Made by a program: the position numbers and the translations under genes | The notes under the pieces: model-generated | What the model saw: only the letters and a program-made list of their open reading frames with translations | What the model was told of the DNA's origin: nothing | The model's database searches: none | From: Acidobacteriota bacterium | GTDB lineage: Bacteria > Acidobacteriota > UBA6911 > RPQK01 > JAJDTT01 | Direction of reading: 5' to 3' | NCBI GenBank assembly: GCA_965217775.1 | Contig: CBDCJH010000002.1 | Span: 256,001-320,000, forward strand | DNA length: 64,000 nt | Part shown: positions 1,934 to 64,000 of the stretch, one piece after another | Numbering within the stretch: the first letter of the stretch is position 1 | Layout of the letters: every line of letters starts with the position of its first letter

Positions 1934-3550
1934 TCACTTGGATTCGTCTGCTGCAGCCTCGGCTGCGAGGTGTTTCATGGCGGCGAGCTCGGGCTGCCAG
2001 ATCGCTTCCAGTTCCTTGACCCGGTCCGGTTGAAGCCGTGCCAAGTCTCGTGATTCGGCGCGGTCCGTCGACAGGTCGTACAGCTCCCACGGGTCTCCCT
2101 TCGATGCGACCAGCTTCCAATCGCCGGTACGAACGGCTCGATTCCCCTCATGGAGCCACCAGAGGAATTCGCGATCGATCACCTTGTCCTCGGTGAACGC
2201 GCCCAGGAGACTTTGGCCGGGAGCGTCGGGGACAGGGTAGCCGGACCAACTCGCCGGTTTCTCGATTCCTACAGCTTCCAGGATGGTGGGAACGATATCG
2301 ATCACGTGACCCGGCGTGTGCCGGAGCTCGCCCCGGGCCCAAATCCCCTCAGGCCAGTGCACCACCAGCGGAGTGCTGATGCCGCCTTCGTGGACCCAGG
2401 TCTTGTGGCGCCGAAACGGAGTGTTGGAGGCGCTGGAGAAACCGGGGCCGAGACAGAGGTACGTGGCCGCGCTGCCGGGAGGGGCGTTGGGGTCGTGACC
2501 GCCGTCCCGCACCATGATCTCGGCGCTGGCGCCGTTGTCCGAGGCAAAGAAGATGAGCGTGTTCCGGAAAGCGCCCATGGCCTTGAGTTGCTCGATCACG
2601 CGGCCGATCTCACGATCCATTCGATCCACCATTGCCGCGTGGATCGCCATCTTCGTCGCCTGGAACCGCCGCTGTTCCTCCGTCAGTTCGCTCCATGGCA
2701 GCGGGCGGTTGATCTCGCCGGGCCCCAGCCTCTCGAGGGCTTCGGGAAAGTGATACGGGGGTCCGACCTCCCGCTCCAGCTCCGACAGGGTCGTGTTGAC
2801 CAGCCCCATCTCCTTTTGTCGAGCGAAACGCTGCTGCCGCATGACGTCCCAGCCGTCCAGATACCGGTCCCGGTAGCGTGCGATGTCCTGGGGCAGGGCG
2901 TGGAGGGGAAAGTGCGGCGCGATGAACGCGATGTAGTGAAAGAAGGGCCGATCGGCGTAGGTGTCGGCGTGCTCCCGCAGGCAGTCGAGAGCGTGGTCGA
3001 CGGTGGTGACCGTGGCGTAGTATCCGGACTCGTCGGCGGCCGGCTCGATCGGCGCGTCATCAATGTAGCTCCCCTTGGCGGTGAAGAAGTTGCCCTGGTT
3101 CCTCCTGTCCAGCGAGCGCTGGAAGCCGCCGTCCAACACCTTGCCGTCGATGTGCCACTTGCCGCTGTGGTAGCTGCGATAGCCTGCGGGTTCCAGCAGG
3201 TCCGGCAGCAACCGGGCCCACTCCGGACGAACGGTGACACCGCCCCCGCATTGACCGGGCAGCACGTCGCGCCGCACCTGCTGGGCGTAGTATCCGGTCA
3301 GAAGGGCCGCCCTGGTCGGCCAGCACCGAGTCGTGTTGTAGAACTGGGTGAAGCGCAGCCCGCCCGCAGCCAGCGCGTCCAGGTTGGGCGTCTCGATTTC
3401 GCCTCCGTAGCATCCCAGGTCCGAATACCCCATGTCGTCCGCCAGGATGAAGACGACGTTGGGTGGTTTCGTTCGCGTTTCCTCGGAGCATCCCTGAGCG
3501 GCAGTCAGGCATATCAGAAGGAACGTGGTGACGACGAACTGGTTTCGCAT
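1934..3550 (-). CDS. Arylsulfatase (formylglycine-dependent sulfatase), probable lipoprotein
   Basis: PNVVFILADDMG, CWPTRAALLTG (CxPxR), GKWH, SDNG and ELYDLSTD motifs. Signal-like N-terminus ending AAQGC. Start chosen at MRNQF. Confidence 0.92.
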   Translation of the reverse strand: MRNQFVVTTFLLICLTAAQGCSEETRTKPPNVVFILADDMGYSDLGCYGGEIETPNLDALAAGGLRFTQFYNTTRCWPTRAALLTGYYAQQVRRDVLPGQCGGGVTVRPEWARLLPDLLEPAGYRSYHSGKWHIDGKVLDGGFQRSLDRRNQGNFFTAKGSYIDDAPIEPAADESGYYATVTTVDHALDCLREHADTYADRPFFHYIAFIAPHFPLHALPQDIARYRDRYLDGWDVMRQQRFARQKEMGLVNTTLSELEREVGPPYHFPEALERLGPGEINRPLPWSELTEEQRRFQATKMAIHAAMVDRMDREIGRVIEQLKAMGAFRNTLIFFASDNGASAEIMVRDGGHDPNAPPGSAATYLCLGPGFSSASNTPFRRHKTWVHEGGISTPLVVHWPEGIWARGELRHTPGHVIDIVPTILEAVGIEKPASWSGYPVPDAPGQSLLGAFTEDKVIDREFLWWLHEGNRAVRTGDWKLVASKGDPWELYDLSTDRAESRDLARLQPDRVKELEAIWQPELAAMKHLAAEAAADESK

Positions 3551-3621
3551 GCCCATGACGCCAGTATAGCCGTTGGGTGAAAGCCTCCAATGGACCGTTC
3601 GGCGTGGTGCTTGCTGCGGCG

Positions 3622-4791
3622 TCATGCCCGGTTTCCCGCTCCCCACGCGGAAGTGAACGTATCACCCTCCTCGAAGCGGCTTGGCCGCAGTGGGTGGAGG
3701 TCGATCCTGGGATTCTGGCCCAGCATGATGCTGGCCAGGGATTCGCCGATGGGTGGTCCCAGCTTGAAACCGTGGCCACTCCCGCCGAAACAGGCATAGT
3801 AGCCGTCCGGGCCACCCTCAGGACCCACCACCGGATGCCAGTCATCGGTGATGGTGTAGATGGACGCCCATCCGCGGTCGAACTCGGCGTCTCGAAGTGA
3901 CGGAATGCGTCTGAAGAGTCCCCGCTCGATGCGGCGCCGGCTGTTCGCGTCCAGGCCGGCGTCGTAATCGTCGATGTCCAGCGGTTCGATTTCCTTGGGA
4001 TAGTCCAAGCCGGCCAGCAGTTTCCCTTGCCGTTGAGGCCGGAAATAAATGTGGCACCCGGGATCGGCGATGATGGGAAAGTGGCCGAAGTCCGACGGCA
4101 ACCGGAGCACCAGATCGACTTCCCGGCTCCAGCGGATGGAGTAGTGGCGGCCCGCTGACCTCCCCACGTGGAACCCCCAGGGTCCGGCGGCGTTGACCAC
4201 CAGCCGGGTCTGAATGACACCCTGGTCACTCTCGACCCCGCTGACACGGTCGCCGTCGACTCGAATCCTCCTTGCGGCGACGCCTTCTTGCGCGACCAGG
4301 CCCCACTTTGCCGCCGCCTGTACCAGTGTCCGTGTGGTCCGTACCGGGTCCGCGTAACCGCCGCGCGGCTGGTACGTTCCGCAGACGACTCCGTCCAGGT
4401 TGAACTGGGGCGCCAGTTCCTTGATCTCGTCCGGTCCGAGTTCCCGGGTCTCGGTGTGGTGTTCCCTCTCGGACTCGAGCACCCTTTTGCCGGCGGCGAC
4501 GTGCTCTTCCTCGAGCAGGATCATCATGCCGGTTCGCCGGAAGCCGGTGTCTCCACCCATTTCCTCATGATCGTTCTCGAACATCTCGAAGGACCGCAAG
4601 GCGAGCTGGACGGTGACGGGGTTGGAGTAGGAACAGCGGATGTTGGCCGCCGAGTGGCCCGTGCTCACCGCGGCCAGATGTCGCTTTTCCAGCAGAACCA
4701 CCTTGCCGACCCCCTTCTTGGCCAAGAAATGAGCCGTGCTGGCTCCCATGATGCCGCCGCCGATCACCACCGCGTCCGCTGTCTTTTGCAT
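3622..4791 (-). CDS. FAD-dependent oxidoreductase (DAO / sarcosine oxidase beta-like)
   Basis: VVIGGGIMG dinucleotide-binding motif, VVNAAGPW, GSGHGFKLGP. Start at MQKTAD. Confidence 0.88.
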   Translation of the reverse strand: MQKTADAVVIGGGIMGASTAHFLAKKGVGKVVLLEKRHLAAVSTGHSAANIRCSYSNPVTVQLALRSFEMFENDHEEMGGDTGFRRTGMMILLEEEHVAAGKRVLESEREHHTETRELGPDEIKELAPQFNLDGVVCGTYQPRGGYADPVRTTRTLVQAAAKWGLVAQEGVAARRIRVDGDRVSGVESDQGVIQTRLVVNAAGPWGFHVGRSAGRHYSIRWSREVDLVLRLPSDFGHFPIIADPGCHIYFRPQRQGKLLAGLDYPKEIEPLDIDDYDAGLDANSRRRIERGLFRRIPSLRDAEFDRGWASIYTITDDWHPVVGPEGGPDGYYACFGGSGHGFKLGPPIGESLASIMLGQNPRIDLHPLRPSRFEEGDTFTSAWGAGNRA

Positions 4792-4811
4792 GGTTTGTCC
4801 CCCGTTGAGAG

Positions 4812-4952
4812 AAATACCAAATCCCAAGCACCAAATCTCAAACAAGCACCAAATTCCAAACGGGGACCGAGTTCCAGATAGACGGTGCATGAGGTTCGTT
4901 TCCGGTTTGTGATTGGTGCTTGCCCTGGCCTTGGTGCTTGGTAATTGTTTGA
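4812..4952. repeat. Degenerate heptamer repeat (AAGCACC/AAATCCC-like units) present in both orientations
   Basis: AAATACC AAATCCC AAGCACC AAATCTC AAAC AAGCACC AAATTCC at 4812-4857. Complementary TTGGTGCTT units at about 4913-4940. Confidence 0.65.
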
Positions 4953-5056
4953 CACTTAATACCTGTATTGCTAGCCTTTTTCGCAAGTTTAACTCCTTTC
5001 ACTTACCATCCCTCGGCGTCGGTGGCGTCTGCCGCCTTGCTGAGTGGGAGAAGACT

Positions 5057-8000
5057 ATGAACCCATCCACAGCTATCCGACGCCTATTCCTCGGTTCGTG
5101 TTTGGTCCTGCTGACTCTGGTGTCTCCATCATTGTGGGCTCAGGGCGTGGGGTCCATCCTGGGAACCGTAACCGACGACGCCGGCGCCGTCATTCCGGGA
5201 GTCGAAGTCACCCTGTTGAACGAACTGACCGGACTGGGACGGTCCACCGTCAGCAGCGACGTCGGTTACTACGAGTTCCGTCTGCTCCCCATCGGGGTCT
5301 ATACGGTGCGCGCGGAACTCTCCGGGTTTCAGGCTTCGCAGAGCACCGGAGTCGAGCTCGAGACGGACCGCCAGGCGCGGGTCGATATTCAGTTGCAGGT
5401 GGGGGAGATCACCGAGACCGTTACGGTCGAGGGAGAGCCTCCTCTGATCGAGACCGAGACGGCCACCGTGGGCGAGGTGGTCACCGGAAGACAGATTATG
5501 GACTTGCCTCTGGACAACCGGCAGTGGCTCCGGCTGGCGACGCTGACCACGGGGGCCACTCCGGCCGCCCGGGACTTCCGTTCTCGCGAGGCCGGAGGCC
5601 GGGGCGTGACCATGCCTGCGGTGTCCGGTGGACGTCCCGAGGACAACAACTACCAGCTTGATGGTGTCGACAACCGGGAAATCGGGAGAGCCAATTTCGC
5701 CATCTCGCCCTCCATCGAAGGAATCGCCGAATTCAAGGTGAGAACCGGCGTGGTATCGGCGGAGCATGGACGGGTGGCGAGCGCTTCCATCGACGTGGTC
5801 ACCAAGAGTGGCACCAACGAAATTCACGGCAGCGTCTTCGAGTTCCTTCGCAACGATGTCTTCGACGCCCGGAACTTCTTCGCGCGGGACGTCAGTCCGC
5901 TCAAGCGAAATCAGTTTGGCGGCGCGATCGGAGGTCCCATTATCAAGAACAAGCATTTCTTTTTCGGCACCTTCGAGGCGTTCCTCCAGGACATCTCGGG
6001 TAACCCTCGCGTCGGAGTCGTGCCCACTCCTGACATGCGTCAGGGTGTTTTCTCAAGTCAGATCCGAGACACCATCAACGACAATCAGCCATTTCCCAAC
6101 AACACGATTCCCCGGGACCGGATCGATCCCATCTCCGCGCGGGTGATGGAGTTCATTCCTCTGCCCAACAGTTCCGACCCGGTCCGAAACTTCAACTACA
6201 TCCGGGACCCGACGGAGGAGAACAAGTATCTGGCCACTATCCGGACCGATCACAACCTGGGCGACGACGACCAGTTGTTCGTGCGCTACTCGCTGGATGA
6301 CGAAGAGATCATCTCGGCTTCCTCCCTGCCCACCAGCGTGGGAGGCGTGGTCACCACGGTCAAGAGCCAGGGGATCGCCGTCCAGGAGACCCACACCTTC
6401 AGCCCCCAGGTCATCAATGAAGCGCTCTTCGGCTGGACCCGTTTCGATCACACTCGGCTCGACGAGCATGCATTGAGAGAGGAAAACATCGCCCAGCAGT
6501 TGGGAGTCGAACTGGTGGGTTTAGATGGTGACGCTCAGGGATTCGGATTTCCCAGTATTTCGATCCGAGGTTTCCTGGCACCCGCGGGGACGATTCCCCG
6601 TCCTCGCAGCACGGACATCATCCATCTTCGAAACACCACCTCCATCACCCGGAACAACCATACGGTTCGGCTGGGTGGCGAATTCCGGGCCTACGACAGC
6701 GACAACTTCAGTCCTGGACAACTGAACGGCAGCTTTACGTTTCAGGGAAGCTTCACCGGAAATTCCTTTGCCGACTTTCTGTTGGGCTGGCCGCTTCGGG
6801 CCTTCCGAAACATCGGGCCCGCGGCGCAGAACGCCTCCATGCAGTACTACGCCGCTTTTCTCCAGGACGATTGGAAGGTCACGGACCGGTTCACCCTGAA
6901 CCTGGGTCTTCGCTACGAGTTGGAGACCGCAATGTCCGAGGACGAGAACGAGTTGGCGCTATTCGATCTGAATACCGACACGGTCATGTTTCCGGAAGAC
7001 ACCCGTGGCGTCGTGGAGGCTTTCTACAGGGAAGTCCTCCCGGACATCCCGATTGGTTTCTTTTCCGGCGGCCTCTACCGGGCGGACAAGAACAATTTCT
7101 CTCCGCGCATCGGGTTTGCCTGGCGACCCTTCGGCCACACCAGCACCGTGATCCGGGGAGGAGGAGGGATTTACTACACGGCTCCCCAGATGACCACTTT
7201 GCTGGCCTCGGTGAGTGCTCCTCCCTTCTCGCGGCGTCCTCAACTGGTGTCCGATTCCGCTTACCCGGAGCTGCGCTGGAACCCGGCCGGAGGCCTGGAT
7301 CAGGCCATCAAGGGACCTTTCACCTGTTTCTGCATGGTCACCCACGATCTTCCCTATGCCTACATGGAGCAGTGGGCGCTCACCGTGCAGCAGAAGCTGA
7401 CTTCGGACATGGCGTTGGAGTTGGGCTACGTCGGGTCCCACACCCTGGATCTGTTCTCCTTCATGCAACGCAATCTGGCCCCGCCGGGTCCGGGAAATCC
7501 GATTCTGCGGGCGCCCCACGGGCGCCACTGGGCGCGTATCCAGTCGAGCGAGCACGGGTTCACCTCTCGCTACAACGGCCTGACCATGAAACTGGAGAAG
7601 CGAGCGGCGGCCGGGCTCTCCTTCCTGGCTGCGTATACCGTGTCCAAGGCCATCGACCAGGCTTCCACCTGGAATGCGGTGAGCATTTCCCGGCATGACA
7701 ACCGGCGCGAGCTGGAGACGGGGCGTGCCGATTTCGACACTCTGAACCGGTTTTCCTTCGCCTACTCCTATGAGCTCCCGTTCGGCCCCGGCCGTGCCCT
7801 GTGGGGCGACGCCACCGGCTTTGCCGCTCGTTTGGTCGAGGGCTGGGGGATCCGGGGCATCACCACGTTCATGAGCGGCTTCCCCTTCTTTGTCCGGATG
7901 TCGGGCGGAGTCACCAACATGGGAGCGGGGGCGGCCCCTCGGCCCTATCGGAGAGCGGACGGCAACCTGCCCGAGTCACAGCGGAACATCAACCGCTGGT

Positions 8001-54210: not shown

Positions 54211-54453
54211 ACTAGTTCTTGGAATTGGGCTTCCATAGAATCAGTCTACTCGTCGGGGACCCACACTCTTAGCGGGCCAAAGTTTCCCGATTTTTGGAAA
54301 CATTCGACCCATTCCACTTGTCAAATCGTCTTACTCTCCTATTCTCAATCGCTTGCATTAATGACGCCCCGAAATTTGGTGAAACTCCTGGGGCAAAAGA
54401 GCCAAGCTGGCGATCTTGGCCGAACACATCGAGCAGGCGGCGAAACGCATCTA

Positions 54454-55930
54454 GCAGCCCGTGGCAAAAGGCCTGATTTCTCCGGCTATTGTTCTTTCTG
54501 CAAGCTGACGCGGAGATGGTTTATTGATGGGTCCGAGAAGCTAAAACTGCAAATCGAGCCGGATCGCCGCGCAAAAGCGCTCCCAGAGCCGATTCCAGCC
54601 GATCCAGTGGCCCATTTTCGCCGAAAAATGCGTAAAAAGCCGGCCCCGGATGCGGCCCTGGAGACTTCGAGGCGTACCCACCCCCGTCAGGTGGCGCATC
54701 AGCAATCCCAGATTGAATCCACACACATGGATCAGCAGTCGCTTGCGCACGTTCGCGTGGCCCCGGACGAAGATCCGACGCAACCCTCCCGTGCCGAACT
54801 GGTGCGCGAACGGTCGCTCCACCAACTCGCTCCGCTGCCGTTGCAACCGTCGCCCCCGCCTCCCCCGGATTCGTCTCCGAGCGCGCGTACACCGGCGCCT
54901 GGTACTTCCGGTTCTTCCCCTTCCAGTTCCGCCGGCCCCGATCCGTTTCCGACAGATACCCCCGCAGCCCCTGCTCCTTCAACCCCAGAACCGTCTCGTT
55001 GCTGTGGTAGCCCTTGTCGGCCACCACTTCCCGGACCTCCGCTCCCGACCCGACCGCATTCACCTCCTCTTTCGCCATCCGGAGCGTTCCACCCATCGTC
55101 TGAGTGTCCCCCAACTCCTCCGGCGCCGTCACCGCCACCACCGCCCCCGTCTCCAGGTCCACCGCCTCTTCCACCTTGTGTCCCAATCGGGTCCGCCCGT
55201 CCTTCAGCTTCGTGATCTTCGCGTCCGGATCGTGCGGATTCACCCATTCCTTGTTGCTCGTCTTCTTCTTGCGCTTGCGGTCGAATCGAACCAGTTCCTC
55301 CCGGGTCGGTGTCGGGACCCCCGAGGCTTCCGCCAATCCCCTCACGAACGTCTCATAGTCTTTCCCCGTGTCCCGGCGCACCAGGCTGCGCATCGCCGCG
55401 TTCGCTTCCAATGTCGTCGCGTCGATCCCGATCGTCTTCCCCTGCACCAGTCCCGCGTCCGACAACTGCTTCAGCACCCAGCGGAACACCTCCCCGTGTG
55501 TCTCCACGTCGATCCGCCGCCGCGTCCGCGACAAGGTGGAGTGATTCGGGGGCGTCTCCTCCGGATCCAAGTCCAGAAACGCCCGCACACTCATCGAATC
55601 CGCCACTCGCCACGCCATGGCCCGTTCCGAGTTCAGCCCTTCGAAGTACCCCACCAGCAGCATCCGGAAATACCGTCCGGGGCGCAGACTCGGCCGCCCG
55701 ATCCCGTCGGCGTAAAACCGCGCACACAGTCCTTCCACGAAGGCGTCGAACCCCACTGTCTCCAGCACTTTGTTCAATCGCTCGTAGAAGGGATGCCCCG
55801 GACTCCGAGGCAGTTTCTGGGTCGCGACCCACATCCCTCGCTGCCGCCCTCCAGACGGTTTCTTCCCCATGGCCATAATGTCATTTTATGTCAGAAATCT
55901 GACTTTTCCCGGACTTTTGCCACGGGCTGC
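54454..55930 (-). mobile_element. IS5/IS1182-like insertion sequence, copy 1
   Basis: Perfect IRs GCAGCCCGTGGCAAAAG / CTTTTGCCACGGGCTGC, each flanked by TA in a CTAG context. Confidence 0.9.
54541..55876 (-). pseudogene. Frameshifted DDE transposase (copy 1)
   Basis: GRPSL, IDATTLEANA and VADKGY lie in one frame; the catalytic VERPFAH region lies in another. One extra base near 54880 (GCG CGCT CGG). Confidence 0.8.
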
Positions 55931-56376
55931 TAGGGGGATTCCCAATTTCCGTTTCTACGCGATTGCCGATGGGATCAAGCATTTCTTGTTTGGCCGGGCC
56001 ACTGGGGTCGGTCCGCCTCGACTCGATCCTTGCGCGAACCTGCTTCCCTTGTTCTCCTGGACCTCCAGAAAAATGGGGAAAGTCCGGCGACCCAGGTATT
56101 GACAACTTGGTACGAAGCAAGTAAGAATAACTGCACATTTGTGGTTACTGGCCACTATCCTCGGAGCCTCGTCGCAAATTGGCTAATATTCCTCCAAGAT
56201 ACCGCGCACGATCCCGGAAAATCCTTTTCTCCCAAAGAACCCATGGCGATCCGGGACGGACGGAGTTTGCAGGCTGCAGGATCTCGACTTATGCCAAATT
56301 GCAGGTTCTAGTTCATTTGCCATCAGCGACAAACATACATTGAACGCCGGATTAAAAAGGGTAAGGAGTACGGAAG

Positions 56377-60771: not shown

Positions 60772-60890
60772 TTAACTTGACAAACCGCATACTAACCCCA
60801 CCCCATTGGAGGTCCAATACTCCGACACTGTGCTCAGGATTTTCTTGAATCAGAAGGGATTGCCAAGACGGCAGACCTGCTGGGCATTTA

Positions 60891-62367
60891 GCAGCCCGTG
60901 GCAAAAGGCCTGATTTCTCCGGCTATTGTTCTTTCTGCAAGCTGACGCGGAGATGGTTTATTGATGGGTCCGAGAAGCTAAAACTGCAAATCGAGCCGGA
61001 TCGCCGCGCAAAAGCGCTCCCAGAGCCGATTCCAGCCGATCCAGTGGCCCATTTTCGCCGAAAAATGCGTAAAAAGCCGGCCCCGGATGCGGCCCTGGAG
61101 ACTTCGAGGCGTACCCACCCCCGTCAGGTGGCGCATCAGCAATCCCAGATTGAATCCACACACATGGATCAGCAGTCGCTTGCGCACGTTCGCGTGGCCC
61201 CGGACGAAGATCCGACGCAACCCTCCCGTGCCGAACTGGTGCGCGAACGGTCGCTCCACCAACTCGCTCCGCTGCCGTTGCAACCGTCGCCCCCGCCTCC
61301 CCCGGATTCGTCTCCGAGCGCGCGTACACCGGCGCCTGGTACTTCCGGTTCTTCCCCTTCCAGTTCCGCCGGCCCCGATCCGTTTCCGACAGATACCCCC
61401 GCAGCCCCTGCTCCTTCAACCCCAGAACCGTCTCGTTGCTGTGGTAGCCCTTGTCGGCCACCACTTCCCGGACCTCCGCTCCCGACCCGACCGCATTCAC
61501 CTCCTCTTTCGCCATCCGGAGCGTTCCACCCATCGTCTGAGTGTCCCCCAACTCCTCCGGCGCCGTCACCGCCACCACCGCCCCCGTCTCCAGGTCCACC
61601 GCCTCTTCCACCTTGTGTCCCAATCGGGTCCGCCCGTCCTTCAGCTTCGTGATCTTCGCGTCCGGATCGTGCGGATTCACCCATTCCTTGTTGCTCGTCT
61701 TCTTCTTGCGCTTGCGGTCGAATCGAACCAGTTCCTCCCGGGTCGGTGTCGGGACCCCCGAGGCTTCCGCCAATCCCCTCACGAACGTCTCATAGTCTTT
61801 CCCCGTGTCCCGGCGCACCAGGCTGCGCATCGCCGCGTTCGCTTCCAATGTCGTCGCGTCGATCCCGATCGTCTTCCCCTGCACCAGTCCCGCGTCCGAC
61901 AACTGCTTCAGCACCCAGCGGAACACCTCCCCGTGTGTCTCCACGTCGATCCGCCGCCGCGTCCGCGACAAGGTGGAGTGATTCGGGGGCGTCTCCTCCG
62001 GATCCAAGTCCAGAAACGCCCGCACACTCATCGAATCCGCCACTCGCCACGCCATGGCCCGTTCCGAGTTCAGCCCTTCGAAGTACCCCACCAGCAGCAT
62101 CCGGAAATACCGTCCGGGGCGCAGACTCGGCCGCCCGATCCCGTCGGCGTAAAACCGCGCACACAGTCCTTCCACGAAGGCGTCGAACCCCACTGTCTCC
62201 AGCACTTTGTTCAATCGCTCGTAGAAGGGATGCCCCGGACTCCGAGGCAGTTTCTGGGTCGCGACCCACATCCCTCGCTGCCGCCCTCCAGACGGTTTCT
62301 TCCCCATGGCCATAATGTCATTTTATGTCAGAAATCTGACTTTTCCCGGACTTTTGCCACGGGCTGC
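60891..62367 (-). mobile_element. IS5/IS1182-like insertion sequence, copy 2 (direct repeat of copy 1, offset 6437 bp)
   Basis: Same IRs; identical translated ORFs in the track; TA flanks (TTAG / CTAG). Confidence 0.9.
60978..62313 (-). pseudogene. Frameshifted DDE transposase (copy 2)
   Basis: Same split as copy 1, frameshift near 61317. Confidence 0.8.
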
Positions 62368-62461
62368 TAGTAGGCTGGACCGAACAATTGGAAGGGAAAA
62401 CTCCCAAGGCGATAATTATCAACGTGGGGAAGAAGCCTCCTCCAGATTGACCCTTCACCCG

Positions 62462-62562
62462 TGCCATAATCCCCGACCAAGCTCCTGACCCGGAGCAACT
62501 AGGCCCCGCTACTGTCAAGCTGCGCCCACCATGACGACCCGGACGCGGTCGTGGCGGGGCCT
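62462..62562 (+). promoter_or_regulatory. Extended -10 element followed by a structured leader / candidate ncRNA
   Basis: TGCCATAAT at 62462-62470; hairpin GCTCC/GGAGC (62481-62496); 12-bp stem AGGCCCCGCTAC / GTGGCGGGGCCT (62501-62562) enclosing a GACC/GGTC hairpin. Confidence 0.5.
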
Positions 62563-62597
62563 TCCACAAAAACTCTAGCTCGGAAAGGATCAATGCG

Positions 62598-62732
62598 ATG
62601 CCCCCACAAACCTACCACTTTCCGTTCACCCGCACGGTTATTTCCGTCGTCATCGGCCTCATCGTCTACGACTTGCTCACGCTGGTAGTCACCGCGTTGG
62701 TAACGGTGATCACGAACTTCGTGATAGGCTGA
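62598..62732 (+). CDS. 44-aa hydrophobic membrane peptide (below ORF-track cutoff)
   Basis: GGAAAGGA RBS 8 nt upstream; MPPQTYHFPFTRTVISVVIGLIVYDLLTLVVTALVTVITNFVIG; the stop abuts the next start. Confidence 0.55.
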   Translation: MPPQTYHFPFTRTVISVVIGLIVYDLLTLVVTALVTVITNFVIG

Positions 62733-62930
62733 GTGATGCAAAACGTAGACTTCTGGATGAAGAATGACAGGGGTCGTTTCCACCTCCACCTTGAAGGCGA
62801 AGGCCCATCGAAACTCAACATGAAGGTGGGGTGGAAGGATCAGAACTGCAATGCGGCGTTGAGTAGGCGTGAGGCCAGGGCGTTGGCCTGGATGCTGCTA
62901 TATCTATCGGAGGACATAAGCTGGCGTTGA
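62733..62930 (+). CDS. 65-aa hypothetical protein
   Basis: GTG ATG starts immediately after the preceding TGA; beta-like N-terminal part then a helix (LSRREARALAWMLL). Confidence 0.5.
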   Translation: MMQNVDFWMKNDRGRFHLHLEGEGPSKLNMKVGWKDQNCNAALSRREARALAWMLLYLSEDISWR

Positions 62931-62935
62931 GCAGG

Positions 62936-62944
62936 TGGTAGAAT
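62936..62944 (+). promoter_or_regulatory. Extended -10 promoter
   Basis: TGGTAGAAT matches TGnTAnnnT, 7 nt before the tRNA-like element. No good -35 seen. Confidence 0.55.
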
Positions 62945-62951
62945 GAACGAT

Positions 62952-63028
62952 GGCAGGATAGCACAATGGCAATGCGCCAGCTTGAGGAGTTGCGGCCTCT
63001 CTCGTGGAGATGTGGGCTCGATTCCCAT
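62952..63028 (+). pseudogene. Degenerate tRNA-Leu(GAG)-like element lacking the 3' acceptor strand
   Basis: GGCAGGA-TA, D arm GCA/CAATGGCAA/TGC, anticodon arm CCAGC-TTGAGGA-GTTGC, long variable arm, T arm GTGGG-CTCGATT-CCCAT. It continues TTGGATC instead of the expected TCCTGCC. Confidence 0.65.
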
Positions 63029-63052
63029 TTGGATCAACGGATGGAGGAATTA

Positions 63053-64000
63053 ATGAACTACGCTTACTGGAGGAAATGTGATTTTCAAGTGCATAGTCCT
63101 AGAGATCCAAACTGGACGGGGCCGAGTTTGGCAGGTGATGCTGAACGATTGCAATGGGCTAGAGAGTTCATTGACCAATGCGTTTCTAAACAACTAAAGG
63201 CAGTAGCACTCACGGATCATAACGACATGGTTATGGCGCCCTTTGTACAGAAAGCTATCGAGGAGCGAAAGGGGAATGATCCCGAGTTCGATCTTTGGTT
63301 CTTTCCTGGAATGGAGATTACGGCAAGGGGAAGGAAGCAATGTATCATCATCTTTGACACCGATCTCTCAGAAGAACGTCGTGAACAAGTCCAAGGAAAG
63401 CTAGGAATTTTATATCCCGATAGTCAAGAGGATCAGGTTGCTCCATCCCCGGTAAGACAACTGGAGGTTAGCTATCCACAGATTGCTTCCCTACTTGATG
63501 AACTGGAAGGCTTGCGCGGTAAGTACATTGTCCTGCCTAATGTCTCACAGGGCGGCAGCCATACGGTCTTAACTCACGGTGAACATAAGGATTTTCTTAG
63601 TATGCCCTATTTCGGGGGCTATCTCGACGGAGGGCAGACCATAGAAACACTCGGACAGCGAAACCGCCGTCGACTGTCGGGCAATAATTCGACGTGGTCC
63701 CGCAGGTTTATTTATCCACTCCCAACTTCAGATAGCCGATCGGCAGACTTTAGTACGCTCGGAACAAATGATACTTGGATTAAAGTTGCCGAGCCAACTG
63801 CCGAGGCAATAAGACAGGCATTTCTTGCCCATCAGTCCAGAATTCGGATCGAAAAACCGAATCTCCCATCTTCTGTAATCACTAAAGTAAGGGTTGAGTC
63901 CTCGACGATATTAGACACAACGGTTCTGGAACTCAGTCCCGAGTTCAACGCAATTATCGGTGGCCGAGGGAGCGGAAAGAGTACTTTTTTGGAGTACGTA
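63053..64000 (+). CDS. PHP-domain + P-loop ATPase protein (Ppl/TrlF-like), 3' truncated by window edge
   Basis: GGAGG RBS; 316 open codons: MNYAYWRKCDFQVHSPRD, VALTDHND, FPGMEIT, TSDSR, WIKVAEPTAEAIRQA, FNAIIGGRGSGKSTFLEY (Walker A). Absent from the ORF track because there is no stop in the window. Confidence 0.88.
   Translation, partial: MNYAYWRKCDFQVHSPRDPNWTGPSLAGDAERLQWAREFIDQCVSKQLKAVALTDHNDMVMAPFVQKAIEERKGNDPEFDLWFFPGMEITARGRKQCIIIFDTDLSEERREQVQGKLGILYPDSQEDQVAPSPVRQLEVSYPQIASLLDELEGLRGKYIVLPNVSQGGSHTVLTHGEHKDFLSMPYFGGYLDGGQTIETLGQRNRRRLSGNNSTWSRRFIYPLPTSDSRSADFSTLGTNDTWIKVAEPTAEAIRQAFLAHQSRIRIEKPNLPSSVITKVRVESSTILDTTVLELSPEFNAIIGGRGSGKSTFLEYV

Follow-up and report, generated by a model that had tools for sequence, protein, structure and literature searches.

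A tRNA-Leu(GAG)-like sequence, probably the relic of a decayed tRNA gene, directly upstream of a TrlF-family defence gene in an Acidobacteriota bacterium

Analysis of a 64,000-nucleotide stretch of the genome of an Acidobacteriota bacterium (GenBank assembly GCA_965217775.1, contig CBDCJH010000002.1, positions 256,001 to 320,000 of the forward strand; hereafter the window, in whose numbering plain positions are given) revealed a sequence resembling a transfer RNA (tRNA) directly 5' of a gene for a TrlF-family PHP-ATPase. The sequence has the character of a tRNA-Leu and has lost the 3' strand of its acceptor stem, it lies where both base composition and homology to a related locus change, and no comparable leader precedes the homologous genes. 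On balance, it is probably what remains of a tRNA-Leu(GAG) gene together with its promoter, lying immediately in front of an incoming TrlF gene in a region rich in insertion sequences (ISs). A tRNA gene would then once have stood at this site or travelled with the gene cassette, and the feature looks like an ordinary kind of scar rather than a new RNA switch.

A permissive scan of positions 62700-63300 (601 nt) against all Rfam families matched the tRNA family, RF00005, over the full model (1-71) at 24.2 bits and an E-value of 0.012, the gathering score of the family being 29. At gathering scores Rfam gave no match in the window, and the scan of 62700-63300 returned no T-box at E-values up to 10. 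Pair-by-pair reading confirmed the D, anticodon, variable and T arms described in an earlier note on this DNA, which had been made from the sequence alone. Pairing is retained at 3 of 4 positions in the D stem, at 4 of 5 in the anticodon stem and at all five in the T stem, while the variable region has a 15-nt insert with a complete four-pair stem (UCUC/GAGA). The anticodon loop, UUGAGGA, is canonical, comprising the anticodon GAG, U33 and a purine at position 37 (G37). The T loop, CUCGAUU, has C instead of U at position 54, the remainder of the conserved T-loop positions being kept. The same note had reported the 3' acceptor strand and CCA as missing, and this was borne out: the acceptor stem forms only four of seven pairs (G-C, G-U, G-U and A-U), with three central mismatches, and no CCA follows. 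An acceptor stem is needed for recognition of a tRNA by RNase P and by its synthetase, and the relic, judged from its sequence, is not a working tRNA.

The host assembly (6.43 Mb, handle G000, contigs C1 and C2) served as the genome for comparison, and two models were built from its tRNA genes. The model of 10 class-II genes recovered the same site at 23.2 bits (E-value 0.013 in 819 kb; 19.9 bits with filters off), aligning the same arms and leaving the acceptor unsupported, with five acceptor pairs marked as non-standard. The model of 30 class-I genes scored the relic at only 11.9 bits, which fits a tRNA with a long variable arm. A tRNA scan of the whole genome returned 50 tRNAs with at least 43.8 bits, then the relic at 24.2 bits (E-value 0.03), with the next match at 17.9 bits (E-value 1.67); the relic is the sole sub-threshold tRNA match in the genome with an E-value below 1. 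When the relic was aligned to 59 tRNAs, 40 from the host and 19 from the vicinity of homologous loci, the six best matches were the six tRNA-Leu genes of the host (63-69% identity), from which we conclude that the relic most plausibly derives from a tRNA-Leu gene that has since decayed. Nothing would have been lost by this decay, since an intact tRNA-Leu(GAG) gene (45.3 bits) is found at C2:596934-597021. The expectation in the earlier note that tRNA finders would report a pseudo or truncated tRNA-Leu holds in part, namely for the sub-threshold Rfam match, but ARAGORN found no tRNA in the window and made no call at the relic at 95-80% of its thresholds, the 80% setting giving 11,365 calls genome-wide. 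The calls made at 70% ('tRNA-Leu' at 62717-62798 and 'tRNA-His' at 62944-63009) were rejected as noise, given the number already produced at 80%.

The G+C content of the host genome is 62%, and only the tract at about 62900-66000 falls to approximately 48%. At a resolution of 100 nt, values of 53-58% over 62800-63049 give way to 45-50% from 63000-63099 onward, which puts the step at about 63040-63050, from roughly 55% down to 45-47%. The closest TrlF homologue is encoded in a genome of the same genus (G006, locus L002) and shares 69-70% amino-acid identity; the blastn alignment with this congener's gene (73% identity) runs from 63042, 11 nt before the ATG, to 7 nt past the stop codon, and no further. 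The tRNA-derived part reaches 63028, the end of the T-stem 3' strand, or 63036 if the model alignment is followed, and the segment of the gene starts at about 63042. Their junction therefore falls within about 13 nt (63029-63041), at the very place expected for the acceptor 3' strand, so that neither this strand nor CCA is left. The congener carries its copy at a different locus, where about 3.3 kb stand in place of a 154-nt spacer; the host studied here has this spacer intact (C2:2842531-2842685). The composition step, the start of homology and the location of the congener's copy at a site that is empty here together indicate, at the level of sequence comparison, that the relic lies at the boundary of horizontally acquired DNA. 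In the congener (L002:3861-7152), the spacer follows a gene ending ...RLGFSLRQTNLYRYSLE, and no repeats are visible at the edges of the additional segment.

The downstream gene matches the NCBIfam profile NF045780 (TrlF_fam_ATP) with 432.8 bits, the cut-off being 350, over profile positions 2-944 of 944. Against the Ppl profile its product reaches 205.5 bits, under the Ppl cut-off of 1000, with a PADLOC Ppl E-value of 1.6e-44. Among Pfam domains, SMC_N and AAA_23 pass their cut-offs, while the PHP domain is weak (17.9 bits, below cut-off). By these profile matches the gene is a full-length member of the TrlF family of AAA-like ATPases and a relative of the anti-phage protein Ppl, and the best explanation of its presence is horizontal acquisition of a single-gene defence cassette encoding a Ppl-like PHP-nuclease/ATPase. 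A 2026 review (PMC12904381) describes Ppl of E. coli as a single-gene exonuclease of single-stranded DNA that is released by nucleoside triphosphate (NTP) depletion and DNA 3'-OH ends. An explanation of 'TrlF' as 'tRNA-Leu fragment' was considered and dropped, the name standing for temperature restriction locus F of Photorhabdus laumondii, in which trlF forms an operon with trlR and trlG (bioRxiv 10.1101/2020.06.02.129163). Among the papers listed for the term TrlF, of which the Photorhabdus preprint was read in passages, none mentions a tRNA-like leader.

The extended -10 box that the earlier note placed 7 nt upstream of the tRNA-like fold is present. It reads TGGTAGAAT and is the only match to TGNTANAAT on either strand of the 64-kb window, where 1.4 matches are expected by chance. 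The GGAGG ribosome-binding site of the TrlF gene was likewise found where it had been described, downstream of the fold, and the hairpin proposed to cover its start is supported by folding calculations. Its strands, CCAUUUG (63025-31) and CGGAUGG (63038-44), pair with -6.8 kcal/mol in isolation; the hairpin is present in the minimum-energy fold of 62951-63075, and in the ensemble of 62951-63100 its pairs have probabilities of 0.53-0.99, as against 0.0 for the pairs of the T stem, so that no balanced alternative between the two is predicted. The predicted unpaired probabilities along GGAGG are 0.05, 0.43, 1.0, 0.42 and 0.05. For the cloverleaf the calculated energy is -6.2 kcal/mol, which falls 20 kcal/mol short of the -26.4 kcal/mol of the minimum-energy fold. 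The 85-nt relic folds no better than shuffled sequences (z +0.48; 134 of 200 shuffles as good), and the 125-nt leader behaves in the same way (z +0.38). By these calculations, the leader RNA would neither resemble a tRNA nor toggle, and the hairpin is, as modelled, an ordinary and modest structure of the 5' untranslated region (5' UTR).

Some further features of the leader were observed. A 13-nt inverted repeat (63023-63035 and 63104-63116, 85% complementary) would allow the end of the relic to pair with TrlF codons 18-22, enclosing the ribosome-binding site and the start codon, and the minimum-energy fold of 62951-63100 is a single long structure across the leader and the early TrlF codons. 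An upstream open reading frame (ORF) of 36 codons, MNDGRIAQ... (62943-63053, plus strand), with AGGTGG a few nucleotides before it, runs through the tRNA-like sequence, its stop codon overlapping the TrlF start (TAATG). As read from the sequence, this ORF would be translatable only if transcription begins upstream of the -10 box.

The events leading to this arrangement may be pictured as follows. A tRNA-Leu gene would have been cut off after its T stem as a TrlF reading frame with its own ribosome-binding site became joined to it. This gene could have been a redundant resident copy, or could have come in with the cassette as the tRNA end of a small island of the tRNA-targeting kind. Since it was not needed, the truncated gene would then have decayed, its original 3' acceptor strand and CCA being gone. 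The tRNA promoter, represented by the extended -10 box 7 nt before the old 5' end, may now serve the defence gene, giving a leader of about 100 nt. The hairpin would be a by-product in the new 5' UTR, the old T-stem strand pairing just before the ribosome-binding site and partly covering the Shine-Dalgarno sequence. Rearrangement mediated by the ISs on both sides would have removed the partner repeat and any integrase.

These events correspond to one of two interpretations offered in the earlier note, in which a tRNA gene was broken by integration of an island and its promoter now drives the incoming gene. What stands of this interpretation is the Leu-like sequence, the G+C step, the start of homology 11 nt before the gene and the existence of tRNA-flanked islands with the same gene family elsewhere (see below); its integration apparatus is not supported, as no displaced 3' end or attachment-site (att) repeat was found and the ORFs scanned include no integrase, and the use of the promoter is something we infer. 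Several observations weigh against the relic-and-promoter interpretation. The tRNA score is under the curated Rfam threshold, and a genome-wide E-value of 0.03 is not overwhelming. The 690 nt at 62371-63060 had no match in 40 other related genomes, eight of them of the same genus, and so neither an orthologous tRNA nor an empty site was found there. The displaced 3' piece that had been expected at the other end of the island was not recovered: a repeat search of L001 (the locus itself, L001:6242 being window-equivalent 66242) from 2300 to 6700 found no partner of the tRNA 3' part, and a genome-wide motif search for the lost end, as the complement of T stem plus acceptor, gave chance-level matches only and was too permissive to be telling. 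The Pfam-scanned ORFs of the window from 43 to 64 kb and the next 10 kb include no integrase. A two-hexamer promoter scan does not list TGGTAGAAT, because it has no good -35 partner by consensus. The tRNA-like G+C content of the relic cannot tell which side of the junction owns it. Finally, a short sequence match to distant homologues, considered below, could mean that part of the leader predates the junction as modelled, although support for this is marginal. The sole exact 12-mer for the lost 3' end (C2:99171, minus strand) was rejected, having no T loop in front of it.

Conservation of the leader was assessed in 160 homologous loci, 80 from species genomes (L002-L081) and 80 from metagenome contigs (L083-L162), with proteins 28-69% identical to the query. 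The best homologues reach 69% identity among 185,579 species genomes and 58% among metagenome contigs, hence no close leader is available for an analysis of covariation. Scans of the 160 loci with both host-built tRNA models at E-values up to 10 found no tRNA-like match within 100 nt of the gene start in any of them, and the leaders of the two closest lineages (L002 and L003) gave no tRNA match under the permissive Rfam settings used for the window. An nhmmer search with the leader against all homologous loci returned nothing below an E-value of 50, and a search of the 117-nt leader against phage and plasmid collections returned only matches of 20-52 nt with E-values of at least 0.3. Apart from one stretch of 18 nt, the leaders do not align. 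In this stretch, GTAGAATGAACGATGGCA (62938-62955) matches at 17 of 18 positions, 13 of them contiguous, in L003, L004, L005, L017 and L102, at a similar distance from the gene start (3906-3923 in L003). A list of 13 public sequencing runs included none of RNA, and assembled contigs of four runs were also inspected. Two of them (X5 and X6) bridge 62342-63367 and, differing at 3-4 positions only, come from the same organism and add no leader variation; a third (X11) covers only part of the gene.

The other interpretation of the earlier note was a functional tRNA mimic: a tRNA-Leu-like 5' UTR would be the target of sensing or cleavage, whether by a synthetase, by RNase P or Z or by a tRNA nuclease of phage or defence origin, and the hairpin would gate the ribosome-binding site, coupling the status of the tRNA pool to TrlF translation. 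The layout agrees with this, since class-II tRNA arms stand exactly between a promoter-like box and a ribosome-binding site, and the T-stem 3' strand can pair with sequence overlapping the start of GGAGG and thereby partly cover the Shine-Dalgarno sequence, whose first two bases are seldom to moderately unpaired in the ensemble. However, the calculated energies disfavour the cloverleaf and predict no two-state balance, the fold is no more stable than that of shuffles, and the acceptor stem on which RNase P and the synthetase depend is broken. The element is also absent from all 160 homologous loci, including the two closest leaders, and a four-leader alignment, which represents two lineages only, gave a weak consensus fold (-6.64 kcal/mol, with an unfavourable covariation term of +1.06) that is not a cloverleaf. 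The mechanism given for Ppl in the review, namely NTP depletion and DNA 3'-OH ends, involves no tRNA (PMC12904381). A switch is not supported by these comparisons, all of them computational rather than experimental, and a functional mimic is regarded as very unlikely. A variant, in which the tRNA-Leu has been kept on purpose, is likewise very improbable. In this variant the nascent leader would be tRNA-shaped for a short time, and the closing of the hairpin would depend on whether the leader is recognised or cut by a factor of the host or of a phage (a modification enzyme, a tRNA nuclease or RNase P or Z); were it true, TrlF synthesis would react when tRNAs come under attack in an infected cell. 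Control of a defence gene by a genuine tRNA mimic would be a remarkable find, but none of the present measurements points to it.

Two further explanations dispense with a tRNA gene altogether or make it secondary. At least GTAGAATGAACGATGGCA might be an old, selected regulatory sequence, such as an operator or the start of an upstream ORF, common to distant TrlF genes. Its match alone has a z of about 5.5; the rest of the leader, aligned globally to L003, L004 and L006, gives z values of 2.9-3.5, a score as high coming up in 3-6 of 500 shuffles; and the 36-codon upstream ORF begins at an ATG within the motif. Yet the five loci with the motif belong to one near-identical Parvibaculum/Hoeflea lineage, with TrlF proteins only 58% identical to the query, and hence amount to a single observation. 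Taken family-wise, as the maximum over 153 shuffled upstream regions, a score of at least 27 is reached in 21 of 300 sets and one of at least 29 in 8 of 300. Moreover, nhmmer finds nothing, the closest homologue (L002, 69-70%) is without the motif, the upstream ORF of L006 has no start codon, and in L003 a 297-aa gene without counterpart in the window lies upstream, its stop codon overlapped by the matching bases. Two genes precede TrlF in the L003 lineage, and a tblastn search of the window region and the genome detected remnants of neither. A conserved element of this kind is considered distinctly doubtful. The remaining explanation is that an ordinary 5' UTR or spacer scores weakly as a tRNA and that no tRNA gene was ever here. 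The score below the Rfam gathering threshold, the silence of ARAGORN at any reasonable threshold, the lack of an att partner, integrase or orthologous tRNA, and the selection of the site by eye from 64 kb all speak for a chance resemblance. The genome-wide E-value of 0.03 speaks against it, with the relic alone in the gap between true tRNAs and noise, as do the discovery of the same site by the independent class-II model of the host, the preserved hallmarks of the anticodon loop (U33 and purine 37) and the frequent occurrence of TrlF-family genes beside tRNA genes. In addition, the six Leu genes rank above all other tRNAs, an outcome that random ranking of 11 class-II tRNAs would give 1 time in 462. 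Chance resemblance is thus an unlikely explanation, and a decayed tRNA-Leu gene in front of the TrlF gene is preferred.

A comparison of L003:3855-4254 with L006, the two loci being otherwise 96-100% identical, showed a drop to 81-88% over the TrlF leader and the first ~250 nt of the gene, which reads as either a recombination patch or a fast-evolving N-terminus.

Across the 160 loci, a tRNA gene lies upstream on the same strand within the fetched flank in 10 cases and on the opposite strand in one (L002). The same-strand distances are 168 nt in L060, 285 in L020, 715 in L033, 775 in L032, 975 in L123, 993 in L131, 1164 in L037, 1285 in L134, 1663 in L062 and 2440 in L009, the tRNA of L060 and L020 being tRNA-Met. 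Convergent tRNAs follow the gene after 124-330 nt in L025, L090 and L027. These counts are descriptive, as the loci do not all represent independent lineages. In three loci, repeats of a tRNA 3' half bracket the TrlF homologue. The repeat of L033 (46 nt, 96% identity, 3246-3291 and 6859-6904) encloses 3.6 kb with only the TrlF homologue, whereas the copies in L123 (56 nt, 89%, 1985-2040 and 7509-7564) and L120 (94 nt, 86%, 1853-1946 and 7448-7541) are each about 5.5 kb apart. No integrase was found among the ORFs scanned inside the mini-islands of L033 and L123; the three mini-islands (3.6-5.6 kb) may be decayed islands or cassettes moved in trans. In the flank of L002, a repeat of about 168 nt (L002:484-652) recurs with 92-98% identity in dozens of places in the host genome and that of the congener, and looks like a miniature inverted-repeat transposable element.

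The features of the locus are listed in Table 1. The segment 62371-66241 is unique in the genome and is enclosed by IS elements. Its left neighbour has a 99.9% identical copy of 1487 bp at 54447-55933 and a 451-aa ORF with the transposase domains DUF772 and DDE_Tnp_1 (Pfam). The right bound is an element of the IS110 family, near which IS1595, IS4-like and ISAs1 transposases and a DNA methylase are encoded. The Pfam-scanned ORFs around the TrlF gene encode transposases, the DNA methylase and housekeeping proteins or belong to no family. It is this IS activity on both sides that may explain why neither a partner repeat nor an integrase is left.

Table 1. Features at the junction of the tRNA-like sequence and the TrlF-family gene (window coordinates)
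Feature	Position	Strand	Remarks
IS5/IS1182-like insertion sequence	60884..62370	-	left bound of the unique segment; repeat copy and transposase domains
Extended -10 promoter-like box TGGTAGAAT	62936..62944	+	ends 7 nt before the tRNA-like sequence
Decayed tRNA-Leu(GAG)-like sequence (putative pseudo-tRNA)	62952..63036	+	D, anticodon, variable and T arms kept; acceptor broken; without CCA
Predicted hairpin CCAUUUG-GAUCAA-CGGAUGG	63025..63044	+	reuses the T-stem 3' strand; covers the first two Shine-Dalgarno bases
Shine-Dalgarno sequence GGAGG of the TrlF gene	63043..63047	+	read from sequence; ATG at 63053; composition junction about here
TrlF-family PHP-ATPase gene	63053..64000, continuing to window-equivalent 65821 past the window end	+	922 aa; profile match

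Small ORFs also flank the TrlF gene. On its 5' side, 62598-62732 and 62733-62930 (both plus strand) would encode a hydrophobic peptide of 44 aa and a product of 65 aa; on its 3' side there is a convergent ORF of 113 aa with a good ribosome-binding site (L001:5863-6204, minus strand). No Pfam family was assigned to the 65-aa and 113-aa ORFs or to a 96-aa ORF on the minus strand, and the 44-, 65- and 113-aa ORFs have no counterpart alongside TrlF homologues. Just before the IS110-family transposase gene, 288 nt (L001:6242-6529, window-equivalent 66242-66529) are 78% identical to C2:4434002-4433728, which starts 21 nt past the 3' end of the transfer-messenger RNA gene; the similarity probably reflects the left end of a related member of the IS110 family that has inserted beside ssrA. 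Contig C1 (144 kb) carries tRNA-Cys, tRNA-Asp and tRNA-Phe genes that duplicate those of the main contig with the same scores. The contamination listed for the assembly is 7.5%, so that C1 might represent a duplication or foreign DNA.

If the relic is indeed the remnant of a tRNA-Leu gene, it adds one more tRNA-gene scar marking an entry of foreign DNA. It would also place the 5' boundary of a single-gene defence cassette with a precision of about 13 nt, and would suggest how a promoter-less incoming gene can be expressed from the promoter of a dead tRNA gene, if, as the position of the -10 box suggests, this promoter may be used for the TrlF gene. For the mapping of defence islands, the recurrence of TrlF/Ppl-like genes as the gene next to a tRNA, mostly in the same orientation and in some cases inside integrase-less mini-islands with tRNA 3'-half repeats at their ends, may be more useful than the relic.

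Comparison with known systems helps to place the locus. Translational operators that mimic tRNA, such as the leader of E. coli thrS, and T-box leaders show conservation between species and stable folding, and the genes they control belong to tRNA metabolism. The leader described here resembles them in having a tRNA-like element beside a ribosome-binding site and a possible competing hairpin. Unlike them, it occurs at a single locus and has no predicted tRNA fold, and the gene behind it is a defence gene of the DNA-nuclease type. Units in which tRNAs and an mRNA are co-transcribed also exist, an example being the thrU-tyrU-glyT-thrT-tufB operon of E. coli. There, as here, a tRNA-type promoter and tRNA-shaped sequence are followed by a protein gene on the same strand with its own ribosome-binding site; in contrast to the operon, the tRNA part here appears to be dead, no tRNA product or processing by RNase P or Z would be expected, and its co-transcription with the gene is putative. 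The TrlF gene itself stands alone, unlike trlF of Photorhabdus in its operon with trlR and trlG. The closest parallel in kind is offered by the tRNA fragments and pseudo-tRNAs at the borders of islands, which form the identity blocks of attL and attR. In these, the tRNA is usually made whole again by the island, and what is displaced is a 3' fragment, whereas here the 5' three-quarters survive without the 3' acceptor strand; decay has also affected the entire relic (63-69% identity to the tRNA-Leu genes of the host), with no partner repeat or integrase found. What the locus shares with such borders is tRNA-derived sequence at the edge of acquired DNA with a defence gene as cargo, and in L033, L123 and L120 the same gene family lies between repeats of a tRNA 3' half.

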